Source of the DNA: Candidatus Magasanikiibacteriota bacterium
Lineage (GTDB): Bacteria; Patescibacteriota; Patescibacteriia; Magasanikbacterales; GWA2-37-8
Reading direction: 5' to 3'
Assembly: GCA_036744835.1 (NCBI GenBank)
Contig: DAIOHD010000001.1
Coordinates: 82,320 to 146,319, forward strand
DNA: 64,000 nt
In this document: one piece after another, positions 3,147 to 57,520 of the stretch
How the letters are laid out: each line of letters opens with the position of its first letter
How positions within the stretch are numbered: the first letter of the stretch is position 1
Notes under the pieces: model-generated
Seen by the model: only the letters and a program-made list of their open reading frames with translations
Databases searched by the model: none
Told to the model about the DNA's origin: nothing
Program-made: the position numbers and the translations under genes

Positions 3147-3247
3147 AGTTCAAAATTCAAATTTTAAAGTTAATCCGATTTAGAGATTAACACTTTGTTC
3201 GTTATTAAAAACGAAAGGGTTAAGCGAATTTTTTTGTTTAATAAAAT

Positions 3248-4459
3248 ATGTCTAACAAAGATTTTAAGACATTATTGGCGGAAAATTTGGTAATATTTCC
3301 AAAAGTTGGGGATATTGTCAAAGGAAAAGTTCTTTCCGTTGATAAAGGAGAAGTGCGTATTGATGTAGAAGGTGTAACTACCGCCATTGTTCGTGGTGCG
3401 GAAATGTTTACCGAATCTCAGGAATATGCCAATTTAAAACCAAACGATCAAGTCGAGGGCACGGTTATTGATTTAGAAAATGAAAATGGCGAAATGGAAC
3501 TTTCTTTCCGTGTAGCTGGTATGCAGCGTGTTTGGGATAACGTGAGAAAATGGATGAAAGACAGCTTGACTGTCAAAGCTAAAGTTTTAGCGGCTAATAA
3601 AGGCGGTGTAATGATGCAGGTCGGCGCGATTGCCGGTTTTATGCCTGTTTCTCAACTCAATCCTGATCATTATCCTCGTGTGATGGGCGGAGATAAGAAT
3701 AGAATTTTAGAAAAACTTCAAGAACTCATCGGTAAAGATTTAGAAGTTAAGGTTATTGATGTTGATGAAAATGAAGAAAAATTAATAGTTTCTGAAAAAA
3801 GCGTTTGGGACGATGCTCAAAAAGCAGTGCTTGAAGCTTATAAAGTCGGAGATACAGTTGATGGTGAAGTTTCCGCACTTACTTCTTTTGGTGCTTTCAT
3901 CAAATTTGGTCAAGGTTTGGAAGGTTTGATTCATATTTCCGAAATTGCTTGGCAACGCATCGATCATCCAAAAGACTTGCTCAAAGTAGGGGACAAAGTC
4001 AGCGCTCAAATTATCCAACTTGATCATTCCAAAATCTATCTTTCCATGAAACGTTTGGTGGAAGACCCATGGAAATTGGTTAAAGAAAAATATAAAGTAG
4101 GCGCTACTGTTAAAGGTAAAATTTTAAAAATTGAACCATTTGGTTTGATGATCGGACTTGATAAAGATATCCACGGCTTGGCTCATGTTTCTGAACTTTC
4201 TGATGAACCTATTGCCAATATCCAAAGTAAATTCCAAATCGGTACAGAAATGGACTTTACTGTTGTTTCCTTAGAACCAACTGAACACCGTCTTGGTTTG
4301 CGTGTAGCTGGAGTCAAAGGCAAAGCCAAAAAAGAAGATAAAAAAGCAGAAAAAACTGAGAAACCTGAGAAAGCTGAAAAGGCTGAGAAAAAAGAAAAGA
4401 AACATAAAGAAGATAAGGAAGAAGTGAAAGAGGAAAAAGCAGAAGAGACAAAAGAATAA
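3248..4459 (+). CDS. rpsA: 30S ribosomal protein S1, reduced-length form with a Lys/Glu-rich C-terminal tail
   Basis: Repeated S1-domain signatures (GxV, FGAFIKF..GLIHISE). C-terminal tail KEDKKAEKTEKPEKAEKAEKKEKKHKEDKEE. Confidence 0.85.
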   Translation: MSNKDFKTLLAENLVIFPKVGDIVKGKVLSVDKGEVRIDVEGVTTAIVRGAEMFTESQEYANLKPNDQVEGTVIDLENENGEMELSFRVAGMQRVWDNVRKWMKDSLTVKAKVLAANKGGVMMQVGAIAGFMPVSQLNPDHYPRVMGGDKNRILEKLQELIGKDLEVKVIDVDENEEKLIVSEKSVWDDAQKAVLEAYKVGDTVDGEVSALTSFGAFIKFGQGLEGLIHISEIAWQRIDHPKDLLKVGDKVSAQIIQLDHSKIYLSMKRLVEDPWKLVKEKYKVGATVKGKILKIEPFGLMIGLDKDIHGLAHVSELSDEPIANIQSKFQIGTEMDFTVVSLEPTEHRLGLRVAGVKGKAKKEDKKAEKTEKPEKAEKAEKKEKKHKEDKEEVKEEKAEETKE

Positions 4460-4471
4460 TCTGATTAAAAA

Positions 4472-4497
4472 ATCACTCGAAAGGGTGATTTTTTGTT
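4472..4497 (+). terminator. rho-independent terminator after rpsA
   Basis: Hairpin AATCACTCGAAAGGGTGATT followed by TTTTTTGT. The same hairpin recurs after ftsH at 7714-7740. Confidence 0.6.
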
Positions 4498-4929
4498 TCC
4501 CTCTTTTATTTAAGAGAGGGGTTAGGGGAGAGTCTATCACCCCTCCTTTTCAAGGAGGGGGCTAGGGGGTGGTTTTGTATTCCTTGTAATATCCGACATC
4601 CTTCTTTTATAAATCTATTATTTTTTCTTTAATCCACTTTTTGTAACCCCGCCTTCGTCTGCCTTCGGCGAACTACGGACGGGCAGGCATAAACTGGAGG
4701 AAAAAGTTTCCTCACTGTTAAAACAAACAAAGCCAGTTGTCTTCTTCACTGTCGCTTTTGTTCAAAACTCGCCCTCCCGTCGACAACGGGAGGTCTCAAG
4801 CAGTTGAACAAATTTTGCTAGTGCAAAATCGTTCCAGTTCATCGCAACTGCTAGTTGTTTGTTTCAAATGCGAGGAGGGGCGAGTTATTGGTGAATATTA
4901 AAATGGCTTAAATTAGCCAAAATAAACCC

Positions 4930-4958
4930 TTGACAAAAACGCTAAAATGTGCTATAAT
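4930..4958 (+). promoter_or_regulatory. sigma70-type promoter of the GC-rich hypothetical gene at 5010
   Basis: TTGACA (4930-4935), 17-nt spacer, TGCTATAAT (-10 at 4953-4958). Upstream GGCTTAAATTAGCCAAAATAAACCC. Nearly identical to the promoter at 57780-57808. Confidence 0.55.
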
Positions 4959-5009
4959 ATGCAGTTAGTAATTTTGTTCCTTTTATTATGTTTTTTGAAG
5001 GAGAGAAAG

Positions 5010-5576
5010 ATGGAAATTTTAAAAAAAGTTTTAAAGTTTTTTGAAGCTTTGGGAGCGGAAAACTTCCGGGTGTTGCTTGAAGAAAACAATCTGGAAAAAG
5101 TAAAAGAGTTTTGTGAAACTCTAACTGTAAAGAAAGTCGTCGGCGATACCTATACCGCCGTGGTTGATTACACCATGTCGCTTGCCGATATGATTAAAGT
5201 CGGTAAGTACGACTGGGTCAACAATGATATTACCGCCGAACATTTCCCGATTACAGGAAGCGGTAAGGCGGAGATTGATTTCCAGCTTGTCTATTTGGAC
5301 AAATCAGCCAATTCAGAGGAAGTTCTTCTCCACATGGAAAAGAATAATCTTCGTCCGGCAACTCTGTTTGAACTTCTTGCTTTCGGGGCGAAATATCCTG
5401 AGCTACAACGCGAATTTCCAATTTGTGCCCTCGGCTCTTCCTGGGTTGGCTCGGATGGTAATCACTACATGCCCTACCTCTACAGGTTCGACTCCAGGCG
5501 TGACCTCAACCTCCGCTGGTTTGGCGGCGACTGGAATGGCTGCTGTCGTTTTCTTGCCGTCCGCAAGGCATCATAA
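5010..5576 (+). CDS. hypothetical protein in a GC-anomalous region (about 45-50% GC versus about 33% background)
   Basis: ORF in the track is 4947..5576. The preferred start is ATG 5010 (MEILKKVLKFF), which has the RBS GAAGGAGAG 5-13 nt upstream. The track start at 4947 lies inside the promoter. Followed by the terminator hairpin CTCCTGCATGTAATGTGCAGGAG at about 5648-5670. Confidence 0.5.
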   Translation: MEILKKVLKFFEALGAENFRVLLEENNLEKVKEFCETLTVKKVVGDTYTAVVDYTMSLADMIKVGKYDWVNNDITAEHFPITGSGKAEIDFQLVYLDKSANSEEVLLHMEKNNLRPATLFELLAFGAKYPELQREFPICALGSSWVGSDGNHYMPYLYRFDSRRDLNLRWFGGDWNGCCRFLAVRKAS

Positions 5577-5832: not shown

Positions 5833-7659
5833 ATGAAAGATTTTTTCAAAAATTTCATTATTATTTTTTGCTGTCTGCTTTTAGTAGCCGGAGCTTTGAG
5901 TTATTTCAAAGAAGATGAGAGTAAAAAACCGGAAACTATCGGTATTGGTCAAATGGTAGAACAAATCAATTCTGGTGCGGTGAAGAAAATCGTAGTAGAA
6001 GGTGATTTAATCAAAATAGAACTTCATGATGAAAACGCCAAACCACAAGAAGTTAAAAAAGAAGCTGGCGAATCTTTTGGTGATATTTTGAAAAATTATA
6101 GTGTGAGTGAAGAGGCCAAAAAGAATTTGGCCGTAGAAGTCAAAGATGAGAGTTCTACTAAATTTTGGATGATAAATTTTATTGTACCGATTATTTTACC
6201 GCTTTTGATTATCGTTGCTTTCTTTTATTTTATGAGTCGTGGAATTCAAGGTGGAAACAACAAGGCTATGGGTTTTGGACAAAGTAATGCCAAAATGGTA
6301 GATCCAAATAATAAAAATAAAAAAACTTTTGCGGACGTTGCCGGAGCTAATGAAGCCAAGGAAGAATTAGAGGAAATAGTAGAATTCTTAAAAAGTCCGA
6401 AAAAGTTTTCCGATATGGGTGCCAAGATTCCCAAAGGCGTGCTATTGATGGGTGCTCCAGGTACAGGTAAAACATTGCTAGCTAAATCTGTGGCTGGTGA
6501 AGCGAATGTTCCATTTTTCCATATGTCAGGATCTGAGTTTGTAGAGATGTTTGTCGGGGTGGGTGCTTCTCGTGTGCGTGATTTGTTTACCAAGGCCAAA
6601 AAAGCTGCTCCAGCTATTGTATTTATCGATGAGATTGATGCTGTGGGTCGTCGTCGCGGGACAGGTCTTGGTGGAGGACATGATGAACGTGAGCAAACTT
6701 TGAATCAAATTTTAGTTGAGATGGATGGTTTTGAACCAAATAGTGGAGTTATCGTGATGGCTGCCACCAATCGTCCTGATGTTTTGGATCCAGCGCTACT
6801 TCGTCCGGGTCGTTTTGATCGCCGAGTTGTTTTGAATATGCCTGATATCAAAGACAGAGAAGAAATTTTAAAAATTCATGCCAAAAATAAACCGATTATC
6901 AAAGAAGCTTCATTGCGTAAAGTCGCTGAACGCACACCTGGATTTTCCGGTGCGGATTTGGAAAGCTTATTAAACGAAGCGGCTATTTTGACTGTGCGTC
7001 GTAATCTCAAAAAAATCACAGAAACGGAAATTCTAGAAAGTATTGAAAAAGTAATGCTTGGACCGGAACGAAAAAGTAGAGTGATAAGTGAAAAAGAAAA
7101 AAAGATGACCGCTTATCATGAAGCAGGGCATGCTATAGTCGGACATGTTTTGCCTGATTGTGATCAAGTACGAAAAGTTTCCATCATTTCTCGCGGTCAA
7201 GCTGGAGGTTATACACTCAAAATGCCTTCTGAAGACAAACATTACTACACCTTGGCACAATTCAAAGATGAATTGGCAATGACCCTGGGTGGTTATGTGG
7301 TGGAAAAAATGATTTATGGTAATGATCAGATTTCTACTGGCCCATCTTCTGATTTGAAAACCGCTACTAAATTGGCTCGCGATATGGTGACTCGCTATGG
7401 TATGAGCCCGCTTGGACCGCGTACTTTTGGTGAAAGAGAAGAGATGATATTTTTGGGTAAAGAAATTCATGAGCAACAAGATTACAGCGATAAAACCGCA
7501 GAAATGATTGATAATGAAGTAACAAAAATTTTGAGTGAAGCGGAAAAAAGAGCCAAAGAAATTTTGGAAAGTAAAAAAGATAAATTGGAAGAAATGGTTG
7601 CAGTGTTGCTTGAAAAAGAAACAATTGAACAAGAGGAAATAAAAGAGATACTTGGGTAA
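5833..7659 (+). CDS. ftsH: ATP-dependent zinc metalloprotease FtsH
   Basis: N-terminal TM, Walker [21 protein letters not shown] region, Zn-binding HEAGHAIVG. Confidence 0.95.
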
Positions 7660-9297: not shown

Positions 9298-9432
9298 AAA
9301 AATTTATTAAATATTGGATATTAAATATTGGATATTAAATATATTAAACAATATCTAATATCCAGTATCCAATATCCGTTTGAACAAACTAAACCAATAT
9401 AGTTTTATTATATCATTTTTAATGGTTTGTGA

Positions 9433-11135: not shown

Positions 11136-12101
11136 TTATTTTTGGAAAAATTTAATAAAAAAGTGACCGATACGCGGAAAAATACCTTCATGATGCATTC
11201 GCATAAAAAGATACATCCAAGTTCCGGTATTGAAAGCATTGTAAAAACCACCGATAAGAATTATCAAAAAAGTAATAATTAAAATGCTTAAAACAACTGA
11301 TAAATTCAGCAAAATAATGCTATTGAAGAGCCCGGCGATAAACCATAAAACAGTAGCCGGAATAAAAGATAATAAAATTATCATAGAAATAAATGAAGCT
11401 AAGATCAAGTCTAAAAAAAGCATTACTAAACTGATTTCAAACGAAACCAAAAAATGATTTTTAAAAAGAACAATACCGTCTTTGAGACCGGTAAAGAATT
11501 TCTTATTTTCCACCACTACATACCCGGATGCAAAAACAGTAATGGCGGAAATTACCAATCCCAAAAAAATAACGATAATAAAAGATAAAATCAAAAATAA
11601 AGAATTCCAAAAATTATTTTCCGGAACAATAAACCATAATCCGGTGGTAAAAACCAACAAAGATAAAAGTGTTAATTTTCTTATAATATCATAGCCTAAC
11701 ACTCTCCAAAAGTACTTATAACTTTTGTGCCAGGTGTCACTGAGATTTGAATGTTTTTTCTTTTTATAATATTCACAAACATTAATAATCAGAGATGTTT
11801 GTGCACAAACCGAGATAAAAATTACAATTGCTAAAACTGCTAAAATAATTTGTATAAACCAAACAATCGCAACAAAATTTCCTGGATCACTTACGGATAA
11901 TAATTTTAAAAGACCAAACCAGGGAAAGTGACTGATGTCCATTGTTTCTTTACTAACTAAAATCATTTGGCCCCAAAAACCTCCCATACCAAAAGGACTG
12001 ACAAATAGAGCGGAAAGAATCCCGAAAATCCAAAGAGACTTATTATTCCAGATAAGTTTGAATGATTGACTTAAAGCTTCGCGATAAGAAGGGGAGTTCA
12101 T
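11136..12101 (-). CDS. polytopic integral membrane protein of unknown function, co-operonic with pilB (stop/start 3 nt apart)
   Basis: 321-aa ORF with 6 or more hydrophobic helices. Not PilC-like by length or motifs. Confidence 0.5.
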   Translation of the reverse strand: MNSPSYREALSQSFKLIWNNKSLWIFGILSALFVSPFGMGGFWGQMILVSKETMDISHFPWFGLLKLLSVSDPGNFVAIVWFIQIILAVLAIVIFISVCAQTSLIINVCEYYKKKKHSNLSDTWHKSYKYFWRVLGYDIIRKLTLLSLLVFTTGLWFIVPENNFWNSLFLILSFIIVIFLGLVISAITVFASGYVVVENKKFFTGLKDGIVLFKNHFLVSFEISLVMLFLDLILASFISMIILLSFIPATVLWFIAGLFNSIILLNLSVVLSILIITFLIILIGGFYNAFNTGTWMYLFMRMHHEGIFPRIGHFFIKFFQK

Positions 12102-12406
12102 AAAAACTAAAAGTTAAAAGTTGAAAGTTAAAAAGCTCACGCTGTTAAATCCCCAAAGGAGTCCGCCTAAGGCGGAATTTAACTGGGGTAAATAAAGTCC
12201 AAAAATACAAAAAATTGTATTCTTTTGGAACAAAGATATTATAGCATATTTTGGCTAAAATGTGGAAATTTTTGAAAGGACAATTATCAACATCTAAAAA
12301 GAGTTGACAAAAAGGGTTTTTTTAGCTAAAATATCCTGTCGTTTATAAGACAAAAAATAAGTTCCTTTAATATAAAATATCAACAACGTTTTTTAGGAGA
12401 AGTACA

Positions 12407-13285: not shown

Positions 13286-13457
13286 CCAAACCTTGAATGA
13301 CCAATGACCAATCAAATTCCAAATCCTAAACCCTAATTACATTTGGACATTTAGACATTGGGTATTGATTGGGAATTGGGATTTGGACATTGGGATTTAA
13401 AAAGTTTAATCTACATTTAAATTTTATAAGTTATTATTTACTAATTTATTTAGATAT

Positions 13458-20012: not shown

Positions 20013-20951
20013 ATGAAAAATAAACTTTCTAAATTGGTAGTTGTCTGCGGGCCAACTGCTAGTGGTAAAACCGACCTGACTATTGCTTTAGCCAAACAAT
20101 TTAACGGCGAAATAATTAGTGCTGATTCTCGGCAAATTTATAAGGAAATGGATATTGCAACGGCAAAACCAATAAGAGTTGAAAGTAGAAAGTTGAAAGT
20201 AGAAAGTAGCGATAACGGCGAATATTTGATAGACGATATACCACATTATTTATTGGATATAATAAGTCCGGATGACAGTTTTACACTTAGCGATTATAAA
20301 GAGCAAGCCCAAAAAGCGATTAATGAAATTATCAAAAAAGGTAAAACCCCTTTTTTGGTTGGAGGAACAGGTCTTTACATTAAAGCGATAGTAGATAATT
20401 TGGAAATCCCTAAAGTGGAGCCAAATTTAGCTTTACGAAAAGAGCTAGAAAATAAAAAACAGGAAGATTTGATTCTCATGCTTAAGGAAAACGATCCAGA
20501 TGCTTTTGAAAAAATAGATTTACAAAATCCGCGACGAGTTTTGAGAGCTTTGGAGGTTGTTTTAAGCACTGGAGAATCTTTTTTGAAACAACAGAAAAAA
20601 GGTAAGCCTCTTTATGATGTTTTACAATTGGGAATTAAAGTGGATAAAGAAAATTTACACAGTAGAATAAATAGTAGATGTGAAAAAATGATTGAAGTTG
20701 GGTTGATTCAGGAAGCTAAACGATTGGCACAAAAATATTCTTGGGAATTGCCCAGCATGAGCGGTATAGGTTACCGTCAAATGCGTGATTACATCGAAGG
20801 CAAGATGTCACTTGATGAAGCCCTTGATTGGCTTAAGATAGATACTCGGCATTATGCCAAGCGTCAGATGACTTGGTTTAAAAAAGACGAAAGAATTATT
20901 TGGATAGAAAACGAAAAACAAGCACAAAAGAAATTAGAAGAATTTTTATAA
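20013..20951 (+). CDS. miaA: tRNA dimethylallyltransferase
   Basis: P-loop GPTASGKT, DSRQIYKEMDIATAKP, overall MiaA architecture. Promoter TTGACG-TATAAT immediately upstream. Confidence 0.85.
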   Translation: MKNKLSKLVVVCGPTASGKTDLTIALAKQFNGEIISADSRQIYKEMDIATAKPIRVESRKLKVESSDNGEYLIDDIPHYLLDIISPDDSFTLSDYKEQAQKAINEIIKKGKTPFLVGGTGLYIKAIVDNLEIPKVEPNLALRKELENKKQEDLILMLKENDPDAFEKIDLQNPRRVLRALEVVLSTGESFLKQQKKGKPLYDVLQLGIKVDKENLHSRINSRCEKMIEVGLIQEAKRLAQKYSWELPSMSGIGYRQMRDYIEGKMSLDEALDWLKIDTRHYAKRQMTWFKKDERIIWIENEKQAQKKLEEFL

Positions 20952-28350: not shown

Positions 28351-28481
28351 AGATAATTTTAAATTTATAATTTTCAATTTTTATTGAATTTTTAATGATT
28401 AAATTTTGAAGGTTCAATTATTTTTTGATTAATTAAAAATTGACCATTCATTAAAAATTGTAAAATTAAAAATTAAAAATT

Positions 28482-31066: not shown

Positions 31067-31245
31067 AAAAAGTTTATTTTAAATTTGATGTTATTTTATT
31101 ACAGATTAGGGTTTTAGTCAAAGTTTTTTATGTAGTATGTATTATGTAGTATGTATTATGTATGTAAAAATTTTTTATATATAATACTTGCTACATACTA
31201 CGTAATATTTTTTGGCTCTTTTTAGCTAAAATAAACCCCTGTATG

Positions 31246-31274: not shown

Positions 31275-31280
31275 TTTTAA

Positions 31281-31792
31281 GTTCAAAGCGGATGGTCGCT
31301 TGGGTCGGAATACGACCCGAGAGGAAAGTCCGAACGCCTCTATCGATAAACTATTATAGACAGGCTAAAAATTAAGAATCTCTTGGTTTTTAGAGGTCTC
31401 GTTTGTCTGAAAGGTAAGGGGTAGCGGGTAACGCCCGCCGTTGCATTGGTGACAATGCAAAAGGGAAAGTGGCACAGAGACTATACTAACGAGTCCCGCT
31501 TGCGGGACGAGTTATCCCGCCCTTCTGGGTGGAAATAACTTGAAATTAATTTTTCTCGTCAAAGGTGAAAAGTGTATGAATGTCTTATATATGGGCTATC
31601 ATACTCGATTGGCAGTGATGCCAAAAACGTGCCAAACCCTGCCTGGCGCAAGAGCAATGTTTTCATTCTCAGAATGAATTCAGAAAGTTAGCTCGCAAAG
31701 ACTGGCACAGTGATGTGACCGGCAAGATAAATGACCATCTCTCTCGATTATGTCGGGACAGACGAAATTCGGCTTATAGCTTTGGATAAAAC
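31281..31792 (+). ncRNA. rnpB: RNase P RNA (bacterial type), expanded to about 510 nt
   Basis: Conserved GAGGAAAGTCCG (P4 5' strand), GGGTAACGCC, ACAGAcgAAatTCGGCTTAT (P4 3' strand). P1 pairing between CAAAGC at the 5' end and GCTTTG at about 31779. Terminator hairpin GCACCCAAAACGGGTGC + T-run at 31804-31835. Confidence 0.65.
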
Positions 31793-34082: not shown

Positions 34083-34313
34083 AGAGTATAAATGTCAAAT
34101 TCCAAATTACCAATTTCCAATCAATGACAAATATCAAATTACAAATTTTGACATTTGGATTTTGAAATTGATTTGATATTGGATATTGGAAATTTGAAAT
34201 TAATAAGTTAAATAAATAAATAAACTGTTTAAGACAGTTGTTTGAAGTCTGTCTTGAAATTAAAGTTAAAACTAAGAAGTTTGGACGTACGCGCCCGCCT
34301 GCCTAACGCCTAG

Positions 34314-41912: not shown

Positions 41913-42052
41913 GTATAAAGTTGAAAGTCAAAAGTAGAAAGTTAAATGTTGCTCAGATTTATATATCAAAAAAGTTTCCTTTTTAAAGGAAACTTTTTTA
42001 GTTTATTTTTAAAAATCCTATAACTTTTAACTTTCAACTTTATACTTTCAAC
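41913..42052. repeat. composite palindromic element: AAGTTGAAAGT-type repeat, bidirectional terminator hairpin, inverted AAGTTGAAAGT repeat
   Basis: Left GTAAGTATAAAGTTGAAAGTCAAAAGTAGAAAGTTA. Centre AAAGTTTCCTTTTTAAAGGAAACTTTT. Right rc GTAAGTTGAAAGTATAAAGTTGAAAGTTAAAAGTTATAGG. Sits between the convergent genes uvrA and rplS. Confidence 0.6.
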
Positions 42053-42394
42053 TTACTTGATTTCTTTCATTTTTCTTTTAAATTTCGGATTGCGTAGGTG
42101 GTGTAATTTTGCTCGGCGAACAGCCATCTGTTTAACTATTTCTATTTTTGTCACCACAGGCGCTTTGAGAGGAAATATTTTTTCCACCCCAACACCTTCA
42201 GAAATTTTTCTAACGGTAATAGTGGCTCCGGCTTCTTTGCCGTGTTTAGCAGCAATAATAGTGCCTTCAAAAATTTGAATACGTTCTTTTTCTTCTCCTT
42301 TGGTATTCGTTTCTTTGATTTTTTGGTGAACCTTTACCACCATTCCCGGTTTATATTCTACCGGTACGGCTGTATTTTTGATTTCTTCAATCAT
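42053..42394 (-). CDS. rplS: 50S ribosomal protein L19
   Basis: FEGTIIAAKHGKEAGATITVRKISEGVGVEKIFPL...VRRAKLHHLR. Confidence 0.85.
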   Translation of the reverse strand: MIEEIKNTAVPVEYKPGMVVKVHQKIKETNTKGEEKERIQIFEGTIIAAKHGKEAGATITVRKISEGVGVEKIFPLKAPVVTKIEIVKQMAVRRAKLHHLRNPKFKRKMKEIK

Positions 42395-45037: not shown

Positions 45038-45730
45038 ATGAATGCGATTATTCTTTGCGGTGGGCTTTCTTCCAGATTAAAAGATATAACTAAATCTATC
45101 CCCAAAGTTTTACTGGAAATAAAAGGTAAAACGGTTTTGGACTGGCAATTGGAAAAAATTAAAGAACTTGGATTGACAGAAGTTGTATTGGCTGCCGGAC
45201 ACTTATCCGAAGTTATTAAAAATACTGTCGGCGAAGAGAGAAATGGAATAAAATTGATCTATGCGATAGAAAAAGAACGTTTGGGTACTGGTGGAGCTAT
45301 TAAGTTTGCTTTTTCTTACTTATCAGATCCACATTTGCCGACTTTTGTATTAAACGGAGATATTTTGACTGGGGTAAATTTACGAGAAATGCTTATCAGA
45401 TTAAATCCTGATAAGGAGGGGATACTGATGGGTGCGCGAGTTGAAGATGCAAGTAGTTATGGCACTTTATTTTTTGATGAAAACAATAATTTATTGGAAT
45501 TTAAAGAAAAAGAAGGAAAAAAAATCCCCGGCTATATAAATGGAGGTATTTATCTTTTTACTCATAAAGCTCACGATCATTTCCCCAAAGATTTAAATAG
45601 TTTTAGTGTTGAATACGATGTTTTTCCCAAGATGAAAGAATTAGATGTTTATACTTTTGATGGAGATTGGATAGATATTGGTGTACCAGAGAGGTTAGAG
45701 TGGGCGAGGAATAATTGGAAAAATGATTAA
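45038..45730 (+). CDS. sugar-phosphate nucleotidyltransferase
   Basis: N-terminal AIILCGGLSSRL glycine-rich NTP-transferase motif. Confidence 0.7.
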   Translation: MNAIILCGGLSSRLKDITKSIPKVLLEIKGKTVLDWQLEKIKELGLTEVVLAAGHLSEVIKNTVGEERNGIKLIYAIEKERLGTGGAIKFAFSYLSDPHLPTFVLNGDILTGVNLREMLIRLNPDKEGILMGARVEDASSYGTLFFDENNNLLEFKEKEGKKIPGYINGGIYLFTHKAHDHFPKDLNSFSVEYDVFPKMKELDVYTFDGDWIDIGVPERLEWARNNWKND

Positions 45731-45799
45731 TATTGAATACTGAATATTGGATATTATAATTTTTTAATATCCAATATCTAATATCTAATATCTTTAGTC

Positions 45800-46669: not shown

Positions 46670-46783
46670 TTCATAAAGTTAAATAGGATACGAAATACGA
46701 AATTATACGAAATTACGAACTGAAGAATTAATAATTGAAAATTCATTAAAAATTGTAAAATTAAAAATTAAAAATTGTTTGGT

Positions 46784-47896
46784 ATGTTCACTTCCGACTT
46801 CGACTACAACCTACCCGTCAAAAATATCGCCCAAAGCCCGGCTGACCCGCGGGATTCTTCACGTTTGATGGTAATTAATAAAAAAGAAAAAACCGTTGAA
46901 CATAAAAAATTTACCGATATTTTGGATTATCTACGACCCGGAGATTTGCTTATCTGGAATAATTCCAAAGTTTTTAAAGCGCGTTTGAAAGGGGATTTGC
47001 AATTAAATCAAAAAGCCGACAATCTAAAAGACAGAAAATCTACTAATAAAATAATTAATCTAAAACCTGTAGAGGTATTTTTGTTGCGTCCTTCTGAAAA
47101 TGAAGGTATTTGGAAAGTTTTGGCCAAGCCAGGGAAGCGTCTGCGTTTGGGAATGAAAATAGTTTTTGCTCCTGATTTCTCTGCGGAAGTGTTGCTCAAA
47201 GATAGCGACGGCACAGTATTGTTAGATTTTAATGACAGTGATTTCAATATCCGTGCTAAAGCCAATAAATACGGAGAAGTACCGACTCCGCCTTATATTA
47301 AGAACATAAATATTACTCAGGATGAATTAACCGACAAATATCAAACCGTGTATGCGAAAAATGAGGGTTCGGTAGCCGCCCCAACCGCTGGATTTCATTT
47401 TACTCCGCAACTCATTGAAAAAATAAAAGCCAAAGGTATAGAATTTGCCGAAGTTACTTTGCATGTGGGACTCGGAACTTTTCAACCGGTCAAAACAGAG
47501 CATTTGGAAAATCATAAAATGCATCATGAATGGGTGGAAGTGACAGATAAAAATGCCGGTTTGATAAATGACGCCAAAGCGCAAGGTAGAAGGATAATCG
47601 CGGTCGGCACTACAACAGTTCGTACTCTGGAGGGATTAGCGGAGGTTAATAAAAATGATAAAGATAAAAGATTGGTAAAAACTTTTCAAGGAGATATAAA
47701 TTTGTTTATTGTTCCGGGATTCAAATTCAAGATTGTAGATGCTATGATAACCAATTTTCATCTACCCAAAAGCACTCTTCTGATGTTAGTCAGTGCTTTT
47801 GCAGAGGATCGTGGTTTTGTATTGAAATGTTACGAAGAGGCGGTAAAAGAAGATTATAGATTTTATAGTTTTGGAGATGCGATGCTTATTTATTAG
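46784..47896 (+). CDS. queA: S-adenosylmethionine:tRNA ribosyltransferase-isomerase
   Basis: FDYNLPVKNIAQSPADPRDSSRLMV N-terminus. The track ORF starts at TTG 46775; ATG 46784 is preferred. Confidence 0.85.
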   Translation: MFTSDFDYNLPVKNIAQSPADPRDSSRLMVINKKEKTVEHKKFTDILDYLRPGDLLIWNNSKVFKARLKGDLQLNQKADNLKDRKSTNKIINLKPVEVFLLRPSENEGIWKVLAKPGKRLRLGMKIVFAPDFSAEVLLKDSDGTVLLDFNDSDFNIRAKANKYGEVPTPPYIKNINITQDELTDKYQTVYAKNEGSVAAPTAGFHFTPQLIEKIKAKGIEFAEVTLHVGLGTFQPVKTEHLENHKMHHEWVEVTDKNAGLINDAKAQGRRIIAVGTTTVRTLEGLAEVNKNDKDKRLVKTFQGDINLFIVPGFKFKIVDAMITNFHLPKSTLLMLVSAFAEDRGFVLKCYEEAVKEDYRFYSFGDAMLIY

Positions 47897-48026
47897 TTCA
47901 AAGTTGAAAGTAGAAAGTTGAAAGTTATCGAAAGACGAGATTATTAATTTTTAATTAAAAAACTTCCTAAATTAATTTAGGAAGTTTTTTAATTTGTTAT
48001 CTGGAAAACCTATAACTTTTAACTTT
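47897..48026. repeat. second copy of the composite AAGTTGAAAGT-repeat / terminator element, between queA and rplK
   Basis: CAAAGTTGAAAGTAGAAAGTTGAAAGTTATCG ... AACTTCCTAAATTAATTTAGGAAGTTTTTT ... CCTATAACTTTTAACTTTTTACTCG. Confidence 0.6.
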
Positions 48027-48449
48027 TTACTCGATCGTTACCCCCATTTGTCTGGCGGTACCTTCCACCATTTTCATGGCAGCTTCAACATCACTGGCAT
48101 TTAAATCGGAAAGTTTTTTCTCGGCGATTTCGCGAACTTGAGATTTAGTAAGTTTACCAACTTTTTCTTGTAGTGGTTTAGCTGACCCCTTGGCTATTTT
48201 TGCCGCTTTTTTAATTAATTCAGCTACAGGAGCGGTTTTCATGATAAAAGAAAAACTTCTATCATCATATACAGAGATAACTACCGGCACAACTTCACCT
48301 TTTTTATCTTGGGTTTTATCGTTGAATTCTTTACAAAATCCGGCGATATTTACGCCGTGTTGACCCAAAGCCGGACCGACTGGTGGGGCTGGATTGGCGG
48401 CACCGCCCATGATTTGTAATTTGATTTGGGTTAATATTTTTTTTGCCAT
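48027..48449 (-). CDS. rplK: 50S ribosomal protein L11
   Basis: [35 protein letters not shown].... The track ORF's extra 24 N-terminal codons run into a MITE copy and are rejected. Confidence 0.85.
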
Positions 48450-50769: not shown

Positions 50770-50955
50770 TTTTTAAATATATAATTCTATAAAAAAATAA
50801 AGTAATTTAAAAAATAAAAAAACTTCGCCCAATCAGCGAAGTTTTTTGTTTGTTTTGTCAATTTTTAATTATTAATTATCAATTTCTCAAATCAGTGGGA
50901 TTGCTTCGTTTCACTCGCAATGACAGTAGTCCGTAGTCTGTAGTCCGAAGTCCAA

Positions 50956-53025
<2,070 letters not shown>

Positions 53026-55390: not shown

Positions 55391-57520
55391 ATGAAATTTA
55401 AATTAGTTTCTACATACAAACCAGCCGGGGATCAACCAGAGGCCATCACAAAATTAGTGAATGGTATATCTTCTGATATGCGACGACAAACTTTGCTTGG
55501 GGTGACTGGTTCGGGAAAAACTTTTACTATTGCTAATGTTATAGAAAAAACCCAGAAGCCGACTTTGGTTATTGCGCACAACAAAACTTTGGCTGCTCAG
55601 CTTTGTAATGAATTTCGCGAATTTTTTCCCAACAATGCAGTAGAATATTTTGTTTCTTTTTATGATTATTATCAGCCAGAGGCGTATATGCCTCACACTG
55701 ATACCTACATTGAGAAAGAAGCACAGATCAACGAAGAAATAGATAGACTACGTCATGCTTGTACTCAAGCGTTACTTACTCGCAAAGATGTGATAATAGT
55801 GGCATCAGTATCGGCTATTTATAATCTTGGTTCACCAAAAGAATATGAACGCACGGTTTTGCATTTGGAAGTTGGGCAAAATCTGGATCGTCGGGGTTTG
55901 ATGGCAAAATTAGTTGAAATGAAATTTGAACGCACCAATGGAGAACTCAAACGCGGAACATTTTTATTGCGCGGACAGGTTTTGGAATTGGTTCCGGTAA
56001 ATGAAGAAAAAATTTACCGCTTTGGGCTTAGTGATAAAATAGATTCCATTGAAATTTTTGATGCTTTGACTCGTAAACGAATCGGGGAAGTAAAAGATAT
56101 GTGGCTTTTTCCAGCCAAACACTATGTGGTATCGCAAGAAACTAAAAATAACGCTTTGCAAGCTATCAGAGACGAATTGAAAATCAGATATGATGAATTG
56201 ATGCGACACGGAAAATTGTTGGAAGCGGAAAGATTGAAACGCAAAACCAATTATGATTTGGAATTGATAGAACATATCGGTTATTGCAACGGGATAGAAA
56301 ATTATTCCAGATTTTTTGAAGAACGAAAAGCAGATGAACCGGCTTTTACACTGCTTGATTATTTTAATTATGGAGCAGGGGATTTCTTGACTGTGATTGA
56401 TGAATCACACGTGACTATTCCGCAATTGCGCGGGATGTTTGCGGGCGACAGATCAAGAAAAGATACTTTGATTGAACATGGATTTAGATTACCTAGCGCA
56501 CGTGACAATCGTCCGCTCACTTATGATGAATTTGATGAAAGAACCAAACAATTGATTTATGTTTCCGCCACTCCCAATGAATATGAAGTTGATTTGAGTG
56601 ATCAAGTCGTGGAACAAATAGTTCGTCCAACCGGCTTGATTGATCCGGAAGTTATTATTGCGCCTGTGACTGGCGGTAAAGTGTCATTGCGAACCCAAAG
56701 GGCGAAGCAATCCCACGATGAGATCGCCACGACCTCAGGAACGCTCAGCGTTTCCTCTGGTCTCGCGATGACAGGACTTTCCCAAATTGAAGATTTGATA
56801 ATTCGGATTGAAGATAAAATAAAAAAGAACGAAAGAACTTTGGTAACCACGTTGACCAAAAAAATGGCGGAAGATTTATCCGAATATTTGAAAGAGAAAA
56901 AAATAAAAGTTACATATTTACACAGTGATATAGAAACTTTGGAACGTATTCAAATTATCACAGATTTACGTCAAGGGAAAATCGATGTTTTGGTTGGTGT
57001 GAATTTATTGCGTGAAGGTTTGGATATGCCGGAAGTATCGCTCGTGGCGATTTTGGATGCGGACAAAGAAGGGTTTTTGCGTAGCGCCACCAGTTTGATT
57101 CAAACTATCGGGCGTGCAGCGCGTAATGTGAATGGTCAAGTGATTTTGTATGCGGATAATATTACTGGTTCTATCCAAAAGGCGATAGATGAAACCAATC
57201 GTCGTCGAAAAATTCAATTGGCATATAATAAAAAACATGGCATCACGCCAAAGACGATTGAAAAAACTATCAAAAATATTTTGGCGGATTTTGGTTTGAC
57301 TTTGAACACAGAAAAACAAAAAGGAAAATTAAGAAACAAAGCAAAAAAATTATCAGTGACTGACTTGGATTTGCTTGGCGATGGCAGACCTCTAGAAACC
57401 ATAATTAAAGAAAAAGAAAAATTAATGCGTGAAGCTGCGGAACATTTGGAATTTGAGTTGGCGGCGATACTCAGGGATGAGGTGAGGGAGTTGAAAAACA
57501 GGATACGAAATACGAAATAA
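55391..57520 (+). CDS. uvrB: excinuclease ABC subunit B carrying an in-frame approx. 31-33-aa insertion encoded by a MITE-like repeat
   Basis: Helicase motifs (GVTGSGKT, DESH, beta-hairpin, TLTKKMAEDL) and C-terminal UvrC-interaction coiled coil. The insertion is at 56683-56773. Confidence 0.9.
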   Translation: MKFKLVSTYKPAGDQPEAITKLVNGISSDMRRQTLLGVTGSGKTFTIANVIEKTQKPTLVIAHNKTLAAQLCNEFREFFPNNAVEYFVSFYDYYQPEAYMPHTDTYIEKEAQINEEIDRLRHACTQALLTRKDVIIVASVSAIYNLGSPKEYERTVLHLEVGQNLDRRGLMAKLVEMKFERTNGELKRGTFLLRGQVLELVPVNEEKIYRFGLSDKIDSIEIFDALTRKRIGEVKDMWLFPAKHYVVSQETKNNALQAIRDELKIRYDELMRHGKLLEAERLKRKTNYDLELIEHIGYCNGIENYSRFFEERKADEPAFTLLDYFNYGAGDFLTVIDESHVTIPQLRGMFAGDRSRKDTLIEHGFRLPSARDNRPLTYDEFDERTKQLIYVSATPNEYEVDLSDQVVEQIVRPTGLIDPEVIIAPVTGGKVSLRTQRAKQSHDEIATTSGTLSVSSGLAMTGLSQIEDLIIRIEDKIKKNERTLVTTLTKKMAEDLSEYLKEKKIKVTYLHSDIETLERIQIITDLRQGKIDVLVGVNLLREGLDMPEVSLVAILDADKEGFLRSATSLIQTIGRAARNVNGQVILYADNITGSIQKAIDETNRRRKIQLAYNKKHGITPKTIEKTIKNILADFGLTLNTEKQKGKLRNKAKKLSVTDLDLLGDGRPLETIIKEKEKLMREAAEHLEFELAAILRDEVRELKNRIRNTK
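56683..56773 (+). mobile_element. MITE-like palindromic element (TIR GTCATTGCGA/CTCGCGATGAC) inserted in-frame in uvrB
   Basis: Shares TIRs and the internal GAAGCAATCCCAC...GCCACGACC core with the copies at 18129-18220, 48478-48544, 57544-57631 and the partial copy at 50895-50925. Confidence 0.75.

Follow-up and report, generated by a model that had tools for sequence, protein, structure and literature searches.

The miaA gene of a Candidatus Magasanikiibacteriota bacterium contains an in-frame array of heptanucleotide repeats, and we propose that this array is a passenger. The bacterium belongs to the candidate phyla radiation (CPR, or Patescibacteria) and has a tiny genome, of which we analyzed a 64-kb stretch (the window). 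The names given to homologs of its MiaA place it in Candidatus Magasanikbacteria. The repeat is probably tolerated in a permissive loop of MiaA and kept open by selection on reading frame and stop codons. The best explanation for the array is that it is one arm's worth of an (AAAGTWG) family that flanks terminators elsewhere in the window, and that it encodes a hydrophilic loop between the TAKP motif and a lineage-specific beta-hairpin. A preliminary description of the window had suggested that a terminator-flanking, intergenic-type repeat was taken into miaA without breaking the frame. Our analysis supports this: the repeat is a tandem array (20173-20209), its frame is that of miaA, and its unit family also flanks two terminator-like hairpins (41968-41999 and 47953-47994). 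The features of the gene are:

20013..20951, plus strand: miaA, tRNA dimethylallyltransferase, 312 amino acids, intact (from TIGR00174, sequence motifs, and an AlphaFold2 model)
20173..20209, plus strand: heptanucleotide tandem array AGAGTTG AAAGTAG AAAGTTG AAAGTAG AAAGTAG, in frame in miaA (from Tandem Repeats Finder and a period scan)
20211..20243, plus strand: native, lineage-specific hairpin segment DNGEYLIDDIP before HYLLD, outside the repeat (array-free relatives keep DNGEFFVDGVK or YEGKIMVDGVE)

The array within miaA

The product of the host gene matches the equivalog family TIGR00174 (293.4 bits versus a cutoff of 148.65), with residues 9-302 aligned to positions 2-287 of the 288-position profile, and it is clearly homologous to MiaA proteins of solved structure. 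The P-loop GPTASGKT (G13-T20), the DSRQ motif (D38-Q41), and T50-K52 of the TAKP motif are invariant in 38 homologs. The AlphaFold2 model has a mean confidence score (pLDDT, the predicted local distance difference test) of 85, and it matches the E. coli MiaA-tRNA complexes 3foz_A and 2zm5_A with a TM-score of 0.84 and a root-mean-square deviation of 2.7 Å.

The array, (AAAGTWG)x5, is 37 nt long, and its codons (20175-20210) encode the 12 residues R55-S66 (RVESRKLKVESS). These directly follow the invariant T50-A51-K52-P53 and begin about 17 residues past the catalytic DSRQ. For 20177-20209, Tandem Repeats Finder gives either a period of 7 (4.7 copies, 88% matches) or a period of 14 (2.2 copies, 100% matches), and the array scores 15 in our period scan. 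It is the sole substantial period-7 array within a gene of the window; the rest are intergenic or touch the ends of genes. If MiaA were digested with trypsin, cleavage across K52-D67 would give, for example, LKVESSDNGEYLIDDIPHYLLDIISPDDSFTLSDYK.

As the preliminary description had stated, 24 nucleotides of the array (AGTTGAAAGTAGAAAGTTGAAAGT) recur exactly downstream of queA, although its coordinates for the two copies were off by 1-4 nt (they lie at 20177-20200 and 47902-47925). If we searched for a 23-mer of the array with up to 3 mismatches, there were 6 matches in the window and none in 100 dinucleotide-preserving shuffles. At both sites, the array is built from a few variants of one unit family, and by our hand estimate, the specific 24-nt match then has roughly a 10% chance of arising, so the identity proves membership in the same family rather than direct copying.

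The array lengthens the protein, but by less than it first appears. The TAKP and PHYLLD motifs are separated by 23 residues here and by 8 residues in E. coli MiaA, in agreement with the preliminary description. However, the nearest array-free relatives already have 14 residues between these motifs, due to the lineage-specific beta-hairpin (DNGEFFVDG), so the array adds about 9 residues net. The earlier figure of about 14 extra residues was thus right about the presence of an extra segment and too high for its size: about 12 residues are encoded by the array, and the "DN" that follows is native and not part of the repeat.

In the structural model, residues 53-68 have pLDDT below 50 and the remainder is confident and MiaA-like, so the segment maps to a presumably disordered loop; the preliminary description had expected a surface loop of the core domain. 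The predicted strands E70-73 and E76-80 are the native hairpin, which is likewise present in array-free alleles. Across 106 MiaA loci, the length of the loop ranges from 4 to 40 residues. The peptides that arrays encode in this loop are not conserved: they include RVESRKLKVES, KVTSDKLQVTS, and LDYGLRTTDYK, or there is none.

Since 7 and 3 are coprime, three units are read in all three phases. A pure (AAAGTTG)n array contains TGA and a pure (AAAGTAG)n array contains TAG. In the miaA array, a single frame of the three is free of stops, namely that of miaA: the second unit has TAG where TTG would make TGA, and TTG in the third unit is at a place where TAG would terminate translation. In the genes of relatives that carry other units in this loop (L164-L167, discussed below), the right arm has the open unit GAAGTCC, while GTAGTCC, which would exactly complement the left arm and is the unit of the intergenic array at 50922, contains TAG. 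This pattern is as expected if the segment is translated and variants that create stop codons are purged by selection. We also considered that the insert might be spliced out or untranslated, but this is unlikely, since the frame and the stop codons are visibly constrained.

As RNA, the miaA array of the window is not predicted to fold into a structure (z-scores of -1.1 and +0.6), and a mismatch-tolerant 23-mer search did not identify an inverted partner within miaA. Because it has neither a partner nor a structure, the miaA array does not act as a terminator. Comparison with sister alleles did not reveal terminal inverted repeats or target site duplications at the junctions of the insert.

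The insert is reproducible. The exact MiaA protein is found in three sources on 2 contigs, and in an independent sample (L169, from SRR27197516), the array region is identical over 35 nt.

Loop alleles in related bacteria

We read the loop in the miaA DNA of eleven relatives (L168, L081, L001, L161, L162, L163, L164, L165, L166, L167, and L169), whose MiaA proteins are 75-95% identical. They have these alleles:

L168 (DLVFDNGEFFVDG) and L081 (ELIVYEGKIMVDG): no array; both proteins have 304 amino acids
L169: the array of the window, 35 nt identical
L001 and L161: AGTTGAA AGTCAAA AGTTGAA AGYTGAA
L162: AGTTACA AGTGACA AGTTACA AGTGACA
L163: AGTTGCA AGTAGCA AGTTG, a GC-rich nested insert of about 50 nt with the palindrome GGCGGATCCGCC, then CAAGTAG CAAGTTA
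L164, L166, and L167: (GACTACG)x4, a spacer of 11-23 nt, and (GAAGTCC/GAAGACC/GAAGTYN)x4, an imperfect inverted pair that is wholly in frame
L165: (GACTMYN)x5 only

Five states are thus seen among the relatives: some lack an array, and others have the same array, units that changed in concert, an unrelated array, or an in-frame inverted pair. The preliminary description had asked for sister alleles that lack the segment, and L168 and L081 are such alleles. It had also raised the possibility that related proteins all share an equivalent segment with different DNA; instead, the alternatives in relatives are other intergenic-type heptamer arrays, and array-free alleles exist. In L163 (5180-5240), the array is broken by the nested insert, yet the gene remains in frame. 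A GC-rich hairpin in the window (GGAGTCCGCCTAAGGCGGAATT, 12150-12190), which adjoins the heptamer array at 12101-12133, resembles this nested insert.

In the series AAAGTWG, CAAGTWG, CAAGTKA, one substitution is repeated in every unit. An identical substitution in all units is a mark of homogenization by contraction and re-expansion.

The type of array does not follow the rest of the gene. Using ungapped comparisons of equal-length flanks outside the loop, we found that L162 and L165 are 92.7% identical in DNA but have unrelated arrays, and that the closest allele to the array-bearing L001 is the array-free L168. Similarly, one cluster of proteins at 90% identity contains two types of loop: P0008 and P0124 have the GACTACG pair, while P0122 and P0123 have the window-type TRVESRKLKVESSDNGEYLVDD. 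L169 is a mosaic by a sliding-window comparison. Relative to L164, it is 89% identical outside the loop and 92-100% identical in most of the nearby 60-nt windows on either side, but 58% identical inside the loop. Relative to the window, it is 82% identical outside the loop, 94% identical inside it, and 98% identical over the array. These identities imply that a patch of about 100-150 nt that bears the array moved between lineages by homologous recombination. At least one short recombination patch has brought the window-type loop into another lineage.

We rejected a single ancestral insertion that was then inherited along the gene tree, given the discordance between arrays and flanks and the mosaic allele. 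The array type ignores the gene tree because recombination shuffles the loop alleles, and with recombination of the loop, fewer independent insertions are needed in this clade, probably two or three.

Heptanucleotide arrays around terminators and in other CPR genes

In the 64-kb window, our period scan found 24 arrays with a period of 7, versus none in shuffled sequences. (These counts were obtained with gentle scoring; with a mismatch penalty of -3, only 3 arrays are found.) Each of the other periods from 5 to 15 gave 0-6 arrays, except that the harmonic period of 14 gave 12. The unit families AATATTG, AAAGTTG, CCAATGA/ATTGGGA, GTAGTCC, TATGTAG, ATACGAA, and ATTAAAA each occur at several loci. 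Many arrays are inverted pairs that extend the hairpins of bidirectional terminators. AAAGTTG-type units, the family of the miaA array, are at six loci, and at two of these they wrap terminator-like hairpins. The related features are:

12101..12133, plus strand: solo array (AAAGTTR)n, abutting the start codon of the minus-strand gene at 11136-12101
41917..41951, plus strand: left-arm array AAAGTTG AAAGTCA AAAGTAG AAAGTTA, behind the uvrA stop codon
41968..41999, plus strand: terminator-like hairpin between uvrA and rplS, 14 pairs (terminator scan)
42015..42054, minus strand: right-arm array (AACTTTN)n, inverted partner of 41917-41951
47895..47926, plus strand: left-arm array AGTTCAA AGTTGAA AGTAGAA AGTTGAA AGTT, right behind the queA stop codon; holds the 24-nt identity
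47953..47994, plus strand: terminator-like hairpin between queA and rplK, with an A-tract and a T-tract, 19 pairs (terminator scan)
48009..48031, minus strand: right-arm array CTATAAC TTTTAAC TTTTTAC (plus-strand letters), inverted partner of 47895-47926
50922..50953, plus strand: intergenic array (GTAGTCC)n, downstream of gyrB

The five related copies listed in the preliminary description are real and correspond to 12101-12133, 41917-41951, 42015-42054 (minus strand), 47895-47926, and about 48009-48031 (minus strand). For the solo array at 12101-12133, both the position and the unit family are conserved in a relative (L165, 1067-1105). The reverse complement of the unit at 50922-50953, GGACTAC, is the unit inside miaA of L164-L167.

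Both terminator-like hairpins have an A-tract on the 5' side and a T-tract on the 3' side, lie between convergent genes (uvrA/rplS and queA/rplK), and have arrays on their flanks. The arms and the hairpin fold together as one long stem (-44 to -49 kcal/mol, z-scores of about -8 to -10). For instance, 47890-48040 folds with -44 kcal/mol, and the arrays form the outer stem. At four other sites (1888-1984, 9305-9377, 45727-45793, and 34090-34201), the arms alone form a hairpin. We also noticed that inverted pairs of AATATTG/CAATATC and CCAATGA/ATTGGGA (including 13296-13386) form intergenic hairpins of 25-40 bp, some of which are between co-directional genes. If we compare the folds of intergenic pairs on the plus and minus strands, then the transcribed strand is the more stable one in three of four co-directional cases, which is not significant. 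At Rfam's gathering thresholds, the only matches in the window are RNase P RNA and two tRNAs, with no family at any array.

Several other arrangements in the window involve these repeats or their neighbors. The array (TATGTAG TATGTAT)n at 31126-31163 folds only on the plus strand, via G-U pairs (-12 versus 0 kcal/mol on the minus strand), and it lies about 115 nt upstream of the 513-nt RNase P RNA (31280-31792) on the same strand. Upstream of queA are an (ATACGAA)n array and the 23-mer TGTAAAATTAAAAATTAAAAATT (46688-46715 and 46754-46776); the 23-mer occurs exactly again at 28459-28481, and the ATACGAA array occurs again at 57503-57519. The spacer upstream of queA is nearly identical in L170 (5880-6005), and in L174 it is swapped for (ATAAAGT)/(AACTTTAT) arrays. 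The stop codon of queA (TAG, 47894-47896) is followed by an array that continues the queA frame as open (FKVESRKLKVIERRDY, then a stop; 47894-47947). Read-through of queA, or a recent gain of its stop codon, would add KVESRKLKV, which is the peptide that the array gives in MiaA. Finally, the product of gyrB (50956-53013) has 685 amino acids, versus 639 positions in the model, and includes a K/E-rich segment at about 575-605 with no period-7 signal.

To compare orthologous intergenic sites, we used the queA regions of two related genomes (L170-L173 and L174). In both genomes, the spacers between queA and rplK and between uvrA and rplS are likewise built from a left arm, a terminator, and a right arm. 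In the window, the arms are AAAGTTG and CAACTTT, with a period of 7. In L174, they are TAAAGTC(N1-2) and GACTTTA(N1-2), with a period of 8-9, and one family is present at both loci (30-160 and 7117-7240). In L170-L173, the left arm is the 8-nt AGCAAGTA, drifting to GTAAAGC, and the right arm is AGCTTTAC; these are also present downstream of gyrB. Put another way, the units that wrap orthologous terminators are AAAGTTG, TAAAGTCN, or the 8-nt GTAAAGCT type (L170, 7114-7220), with periods of 7, 8, or 9. From these comparisons, the complementarity of the arms is kept while their sequence turns over, and each genome seems to have array families of its own. The window's miaA array does match an intergenic unit family of its genome. 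We also considered that intergenic arrays might always be in step with the miaA array of their genome, but this is not supported: in the genome represented by L165 and L170-L172 (about 34 kb examined), the miaA unit is GACTMYN and the intergenic units are AAAGTTR, TTTATTG, and the 8-nt GTAAAGCT type.

More distant CPR bacteria have similar arrays in the same loop of MiaA. (The miaA loci that we considered are among the matches listed by metagenome and genome scans, and are mostly distant MiaAs.) In proteins that are 42-53% identical, the arrays are independent: the loop has (GGAAATT)x4 in L124 and (AAGTCAA)x4 in L134, and there are also arrays in L128, L016, and L057. The most striking case is L089 (423-497), which has (GGAAATT)x4 and (AGTTTCC)x4 in frame. 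These form a perfect 32-bp hairpin (-51 kcal/mol, z-score of -9.5), and an A-to-G difference between the arms preserves a G-U pair. Other miaA loops have palindromic inserts that are not periodic (L027, z-score of -7.4; L110, -6.3; L120, -5.0; L011, -4.1; and L136, -4.0). Further palindromic inserts in the loop are in L113 (with L110), in L155 (with a z-score of only -1.7), and in the proteins P0069 and P0045; in P0069, KYS is followed by a second insert. Some of the peptides from palindromic inserts, of the "IPAFAGMT / RLRGDDK" type, are presumably translations of common bacterial extragenic palindromes. Across CPR bacteria, this loop of MiaA is a site where repeats of this kind have landed repeatedly.

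These arrays are not limited to miaA. Across all of the loci that we fetched, about half of the 112 period-7 arrays are more than 90 nt inside long open reading frames (ORFs). NCBIfam models identified the array-bearing ORFs as GatB, MiaB, RNase HII, and NrdG, with 8 of the ORFs below confirmed:

gatB arrays: L109 3176-3201, L004 11973-11998, L092 8737-8760, L137 6570-6589
miaB arrays: L012 8591-8623, L131 307-331 and 727-758, L075 305-342
rnhB arrays: L044 765-804, L021 491-752
nrdG array: L019 17765-17814

In these CPR genes, the arrays are in frame and occupy recurrent loops of the proteins. The units are A-rich on the coding strand and give peptides that are rich in K, N, Q, S, E, and R. 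In GatB, an array gives RNPKSEIRK before LVDFNRAGVPL, and there is a second site before GTKVEIKNLNSF. In MiaB, the array peptide KLKTQNSKLKT precedes ILTGC. A GyrB-like ORF in L016 has the heptamer-array peptide EISNLKNQKSKIKK and a putative intein. L134 has a 656-codon stop-to-stop frame (3207-5174) with MiaB-like and MiaA-like sequences and a heptamer array in each. This may be a fusion, or merely adjacent genes in the same frame.

Among loci that were all selected around miaA, there are 0.7 period-7 arrays per 100 kb in non-CPR loci, 4.6-5.2 in CPR loci, 11.8 in close relatives, and 29.7 in the window. For periods of 5, 8, 10, and 11, the CPR sets have 0.3-1.7 arrays per 100 kb.

Alternative explanations and related repeat systems

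We propose that the loop of MiaA that is most permissive acquired an arm, or a full pair of arms, of the periodic array family of the genome, which arose in place or came as a copy, perhaps by slippage together with copying or conversion from intergenic arrays. As the comparison of alleles shows, only versions that are in frame, free of stops, and hydrophilic survive. Slippage may then homogenize the array and resize it in steps of 21 nt. Recombination spreads alleles between lineages, as the mosaic allele shows, and loss would bring back the short loop. Transcription and translation of miaA would include the array, which is short-lived in evolutionary terms: gained, lost, homogenized, replaced, or moved. 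It persists because the loop tolerates almost any length and because selection has filtered the total length (a multiple of 3) and the variants that avoid TGA and TAG. We infer that the array is neutral for the activity of MiaA from three observations: the peptide is not conserved, some alleles are array-free, and this part of the model has low confidence. At this single locus, the array is most likely harmless.

Four points weigh against this account. First, minority variants with frameshifts are invisible in consensus assemblies. Second, both the translation of this stretch and its neutrality for the enzyme are things that we infer from comparing sequences. Third, the recurrence of arrays at one loop, along with the 24-nt identity to an intergenic arm, could reflect targeting or a function instead of mere tolerance. 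Fourth, the in-gene hairpin of L089 is hard to call harmless, and it hints at an element with its own mechanism of propagation.

We consider a broader proposal possible but speculative. The inverted modules of period-7 (locally period 8-9) arrays might be an undescribed class of self-propagating CPR repeats that wrap bidirectional terminators. They would be homogenized within each genome, with one unit at its various loci, another unit at the orthologous loci of relatives, and arms that always co-vary, and would repeatedly enter permissive loops of MiaA, GatB, MiaB, RNase HII, and NrdG as single arms or as hairpins that are translated in all three phases. In miaA, the array would additionally be a latent frameshift switch.

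Among the rival explanations, miaA might be a contingency locus for phase variation: slipped-strand mispairing that adds or removes units would shift the frame and reversibly switch the i6A37 modification of tRNA, which would affect the fidelity of translation as well as stress phenotypes. In favor of this, the unit cannot be divided into triplets, 2.2 copies of the 14-nt period match perfectly, and the array is near the 5' end of the gene (codons 55-66 of 312). The concerted change of units (AAAGTWG, CAAGTKA, CAAGTWG) implies repeated contraction and re-expansion, so slippage does occur here. Also, MiaA dosage is reported to be a known regulatory node in E. coli (PMC9303304). However, all of the roughly 142 miaA loci that we surveyed, as consensus assemblies, are in frame across the loop, from DSRQ to HYLLD. 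In four clusters at 90% identity, the frame is intact in every member whose sequence spans the loop, and we did not find any alleles that differ in copy number. The array is short and is imperfect at period 7 (88%), sister lineages commonly have alleles that are array-free or not slippery, and similar arrays are in GatB, MiaB, and RNase HII, which are unlike the classical targets of phase variation. We therefore consider a contingency locus to be unlikely.

Another explanation is that the array acts in cis at the RNA level. A factor that binds the heptamers, or pairing with the (CAACTTT)n arms in the 3' regions of rplS and rplK, might tune the stability or the translation of the miaA mRNA. The genome does encode complementary arms (42015-42054 and 48009-48031). 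The arms stay complementary across genomes (AAAGTTG/CAACTTT in the window, TAAAGTC/GACTTTA in L174, and GTAAAGC/GCTTTAC in L170), so the pairing of arrays matters somewhere, and some other in-gene inserts in CPR bacteria keep a full hairpin (L089). But the miaA array of the window has no local partner or structure (z-score of -1.1), and sister alleles are array-free or have unrelated units, so there is no conserved target sequence. No Rfam family matches any array, and pairing in trans is pure conjecture. We doubt that the array has such a role.

The array might instead be an adaptive feature of the protein, with a charged loop of R, K, E, and S residues that adds a contact with tRNA or an interaction surface, and with different arrays as alternative selected solutions. 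The insert does adjoin TAKP, about 17 residues past DSRQ, and A-rich arrays on the coding strand give K/N/Q/S/E/R peptides in many CPR genes. The tandem repeats of Borgs were proposed to create useful disordered regions (PMC9879509). However, the peptide sequence is not conserved at all, the loop spans 4 to 40 residues, and the AlphaFold2 model shows no ordered contact. The hydrophilic composition is equally explained by the purging of disruptive inserts. An adaptive loop seems quite improbable. Lastly, although errors of assembly can arise at repeats and the genome is rich in A and T (35% GC), a chance coincidence in low-complexity sequence or an assembly artifact is effectively refuted by the absence of matches in shuffles, the specific enrichment of period 7, the exact protein in three sources on 2 contigs, the 35 identical nucleotides in the independent L169, and the homologous arrays in several relatives.

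We compared our account of a tolerated passenger repeat to known systems. The short tandemly repeated repetitive (STRR) sequences of cyanobacteria are heptanucleotide repeats. None of the units here (AAAGTWG, AATATTG, CCAATGA, GTAGTCC, and TATGTAG, among others) matches CCCCAGT, TTGGTCA, or CAACAGT, which we take to be STRR consensus units. The TAACTGA repeats of Beggiatoaceae are also heptanucleotide repeats, and MacGregor et al. reported that, within genes, such arrays are limited in their location by stop codons in the translated unit (PMC4679880). According to that paper's summary of Mrazek et al. 2007, 7-nt units are the commonest class of long simple sequence repeats (PMC4679880). Like the STRR and TAACTGA repeats, the arrays here are short (2-6 copies), are mostly intergenic, belong to several unit families per genome, and have an unexplained origin. 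In contrast to them, the arrays here are in a CPR phylum and have other units, many are inverted pairs around terminator hairpins with arms that co-vary between genomes, they are often deep in housekeeping ORFs and read in all three phases, and orthologous sites may have a period of 8-9. What they share with STRRs is the kind of repeat, and neither the sequence nor the taxon.

Rickettsia palindromic elements (RPEs) were reportedly described by Ogata et al. 2000. These and other intragenic repeats of the miniature inverted-repeat transposable element type insert in frame into housekeeping genes (PMC10969869). As in our case, an intergenic-type repeat is in frame in housekeeping genes of a reduced genome, its translation gives an extra surface segment that the fold can accommodate, and sister genes have both occupied and empty sites. 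But RPEs are palindromes of about 150 bp that form sequence families with a conserved peptide, while the insert in the window is 37 nt and has no palindrome, conserved peptide, visible ends, or target duplication. By this description it is set apart from the RPEs, and the organisms and the sequences are unrelated in composition. The palindromic MiaA inserts of L089, L027, L110, and L120 are closer to RPEs.

The extragenic palindromes of the repetitive extragenic palindromic (REP) and bacterial interspersed mosaic element (BIME) types occur next to terminators. They are similar to the arrays here in being dispersed intergenic repeats between convergent genes that form or extend hairpins at 3' ends, but here, the arms are themselves tandem arrays with an internal period, and their units are specific to the genome. 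No REP-associated tyrosine transposase (RAYT) turned up in the 64 kb, although we made no search aimed at RAYT.

Phase-variable contingency loci with simple sequence repeats are known from Haemophilus and Neisseria (PMC3315296 and PMC8262952). Like these loci, miaA has a non-triplet unit near the 5' end of the ORF, with evident turnover of units. Unlike them, it has no observed alleles with frameshifts or altered copy number, the array is short and imperfect, and the gene encodes a cytoplasmic housekeeping enzyme and not a surface protein or a restriction-modification system. The repeats of Borgs within ORFs all have units whose length is a multiple of three and give perfect amino-acid repeats (PMC9879509). 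Both kinds of repeats are fast-evolving, A-rich, and located between and within genes, and their in-gene copies are of low complexity and disordered. With the 7-nt unit here, however, the frame is kept only at steps of 21 nt, and variants without stops are needed.

Overall, the finding seems to combine known kinds, namely heptanucleotide repeats and in-frame repeats like the RPEs. The searchable literature, which leaves out journals behind subscriptions, did not yield a paper that links CPR or Patescibacteria to heptanucleotide or tandem repeats; this does not prove that the finding is new.

Repeats with non-triplet units in essential-type genes are usually read as lethal or as switches for phase variation. 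In this case, the gene of a conserved tRNA-modification enzyme stably carries an array of 7-nt units that is read through, and the sister alleles expose the filter that permits it: multiples of 21 or 3 nt, stop-free variants of the unit, and a hydrophilic output. More interesting than the single locus are the co-varying periodic arms around terminators, the recurrent in-frame capture of arrays by CPR housekeeping proteins, and the shuffling of alleles in miaA. This repeat dynamic would be a CPR counterpart of the RPEs of Rickettsia. Hypervariable loops of this kind can mislead the annotation, alignment, and phylogeny of CPR marker genes. Together, the orthologous occupied and empty sites and the mosaic allele provide a concrete system for the origin and spread of heptanucleotide repeats.

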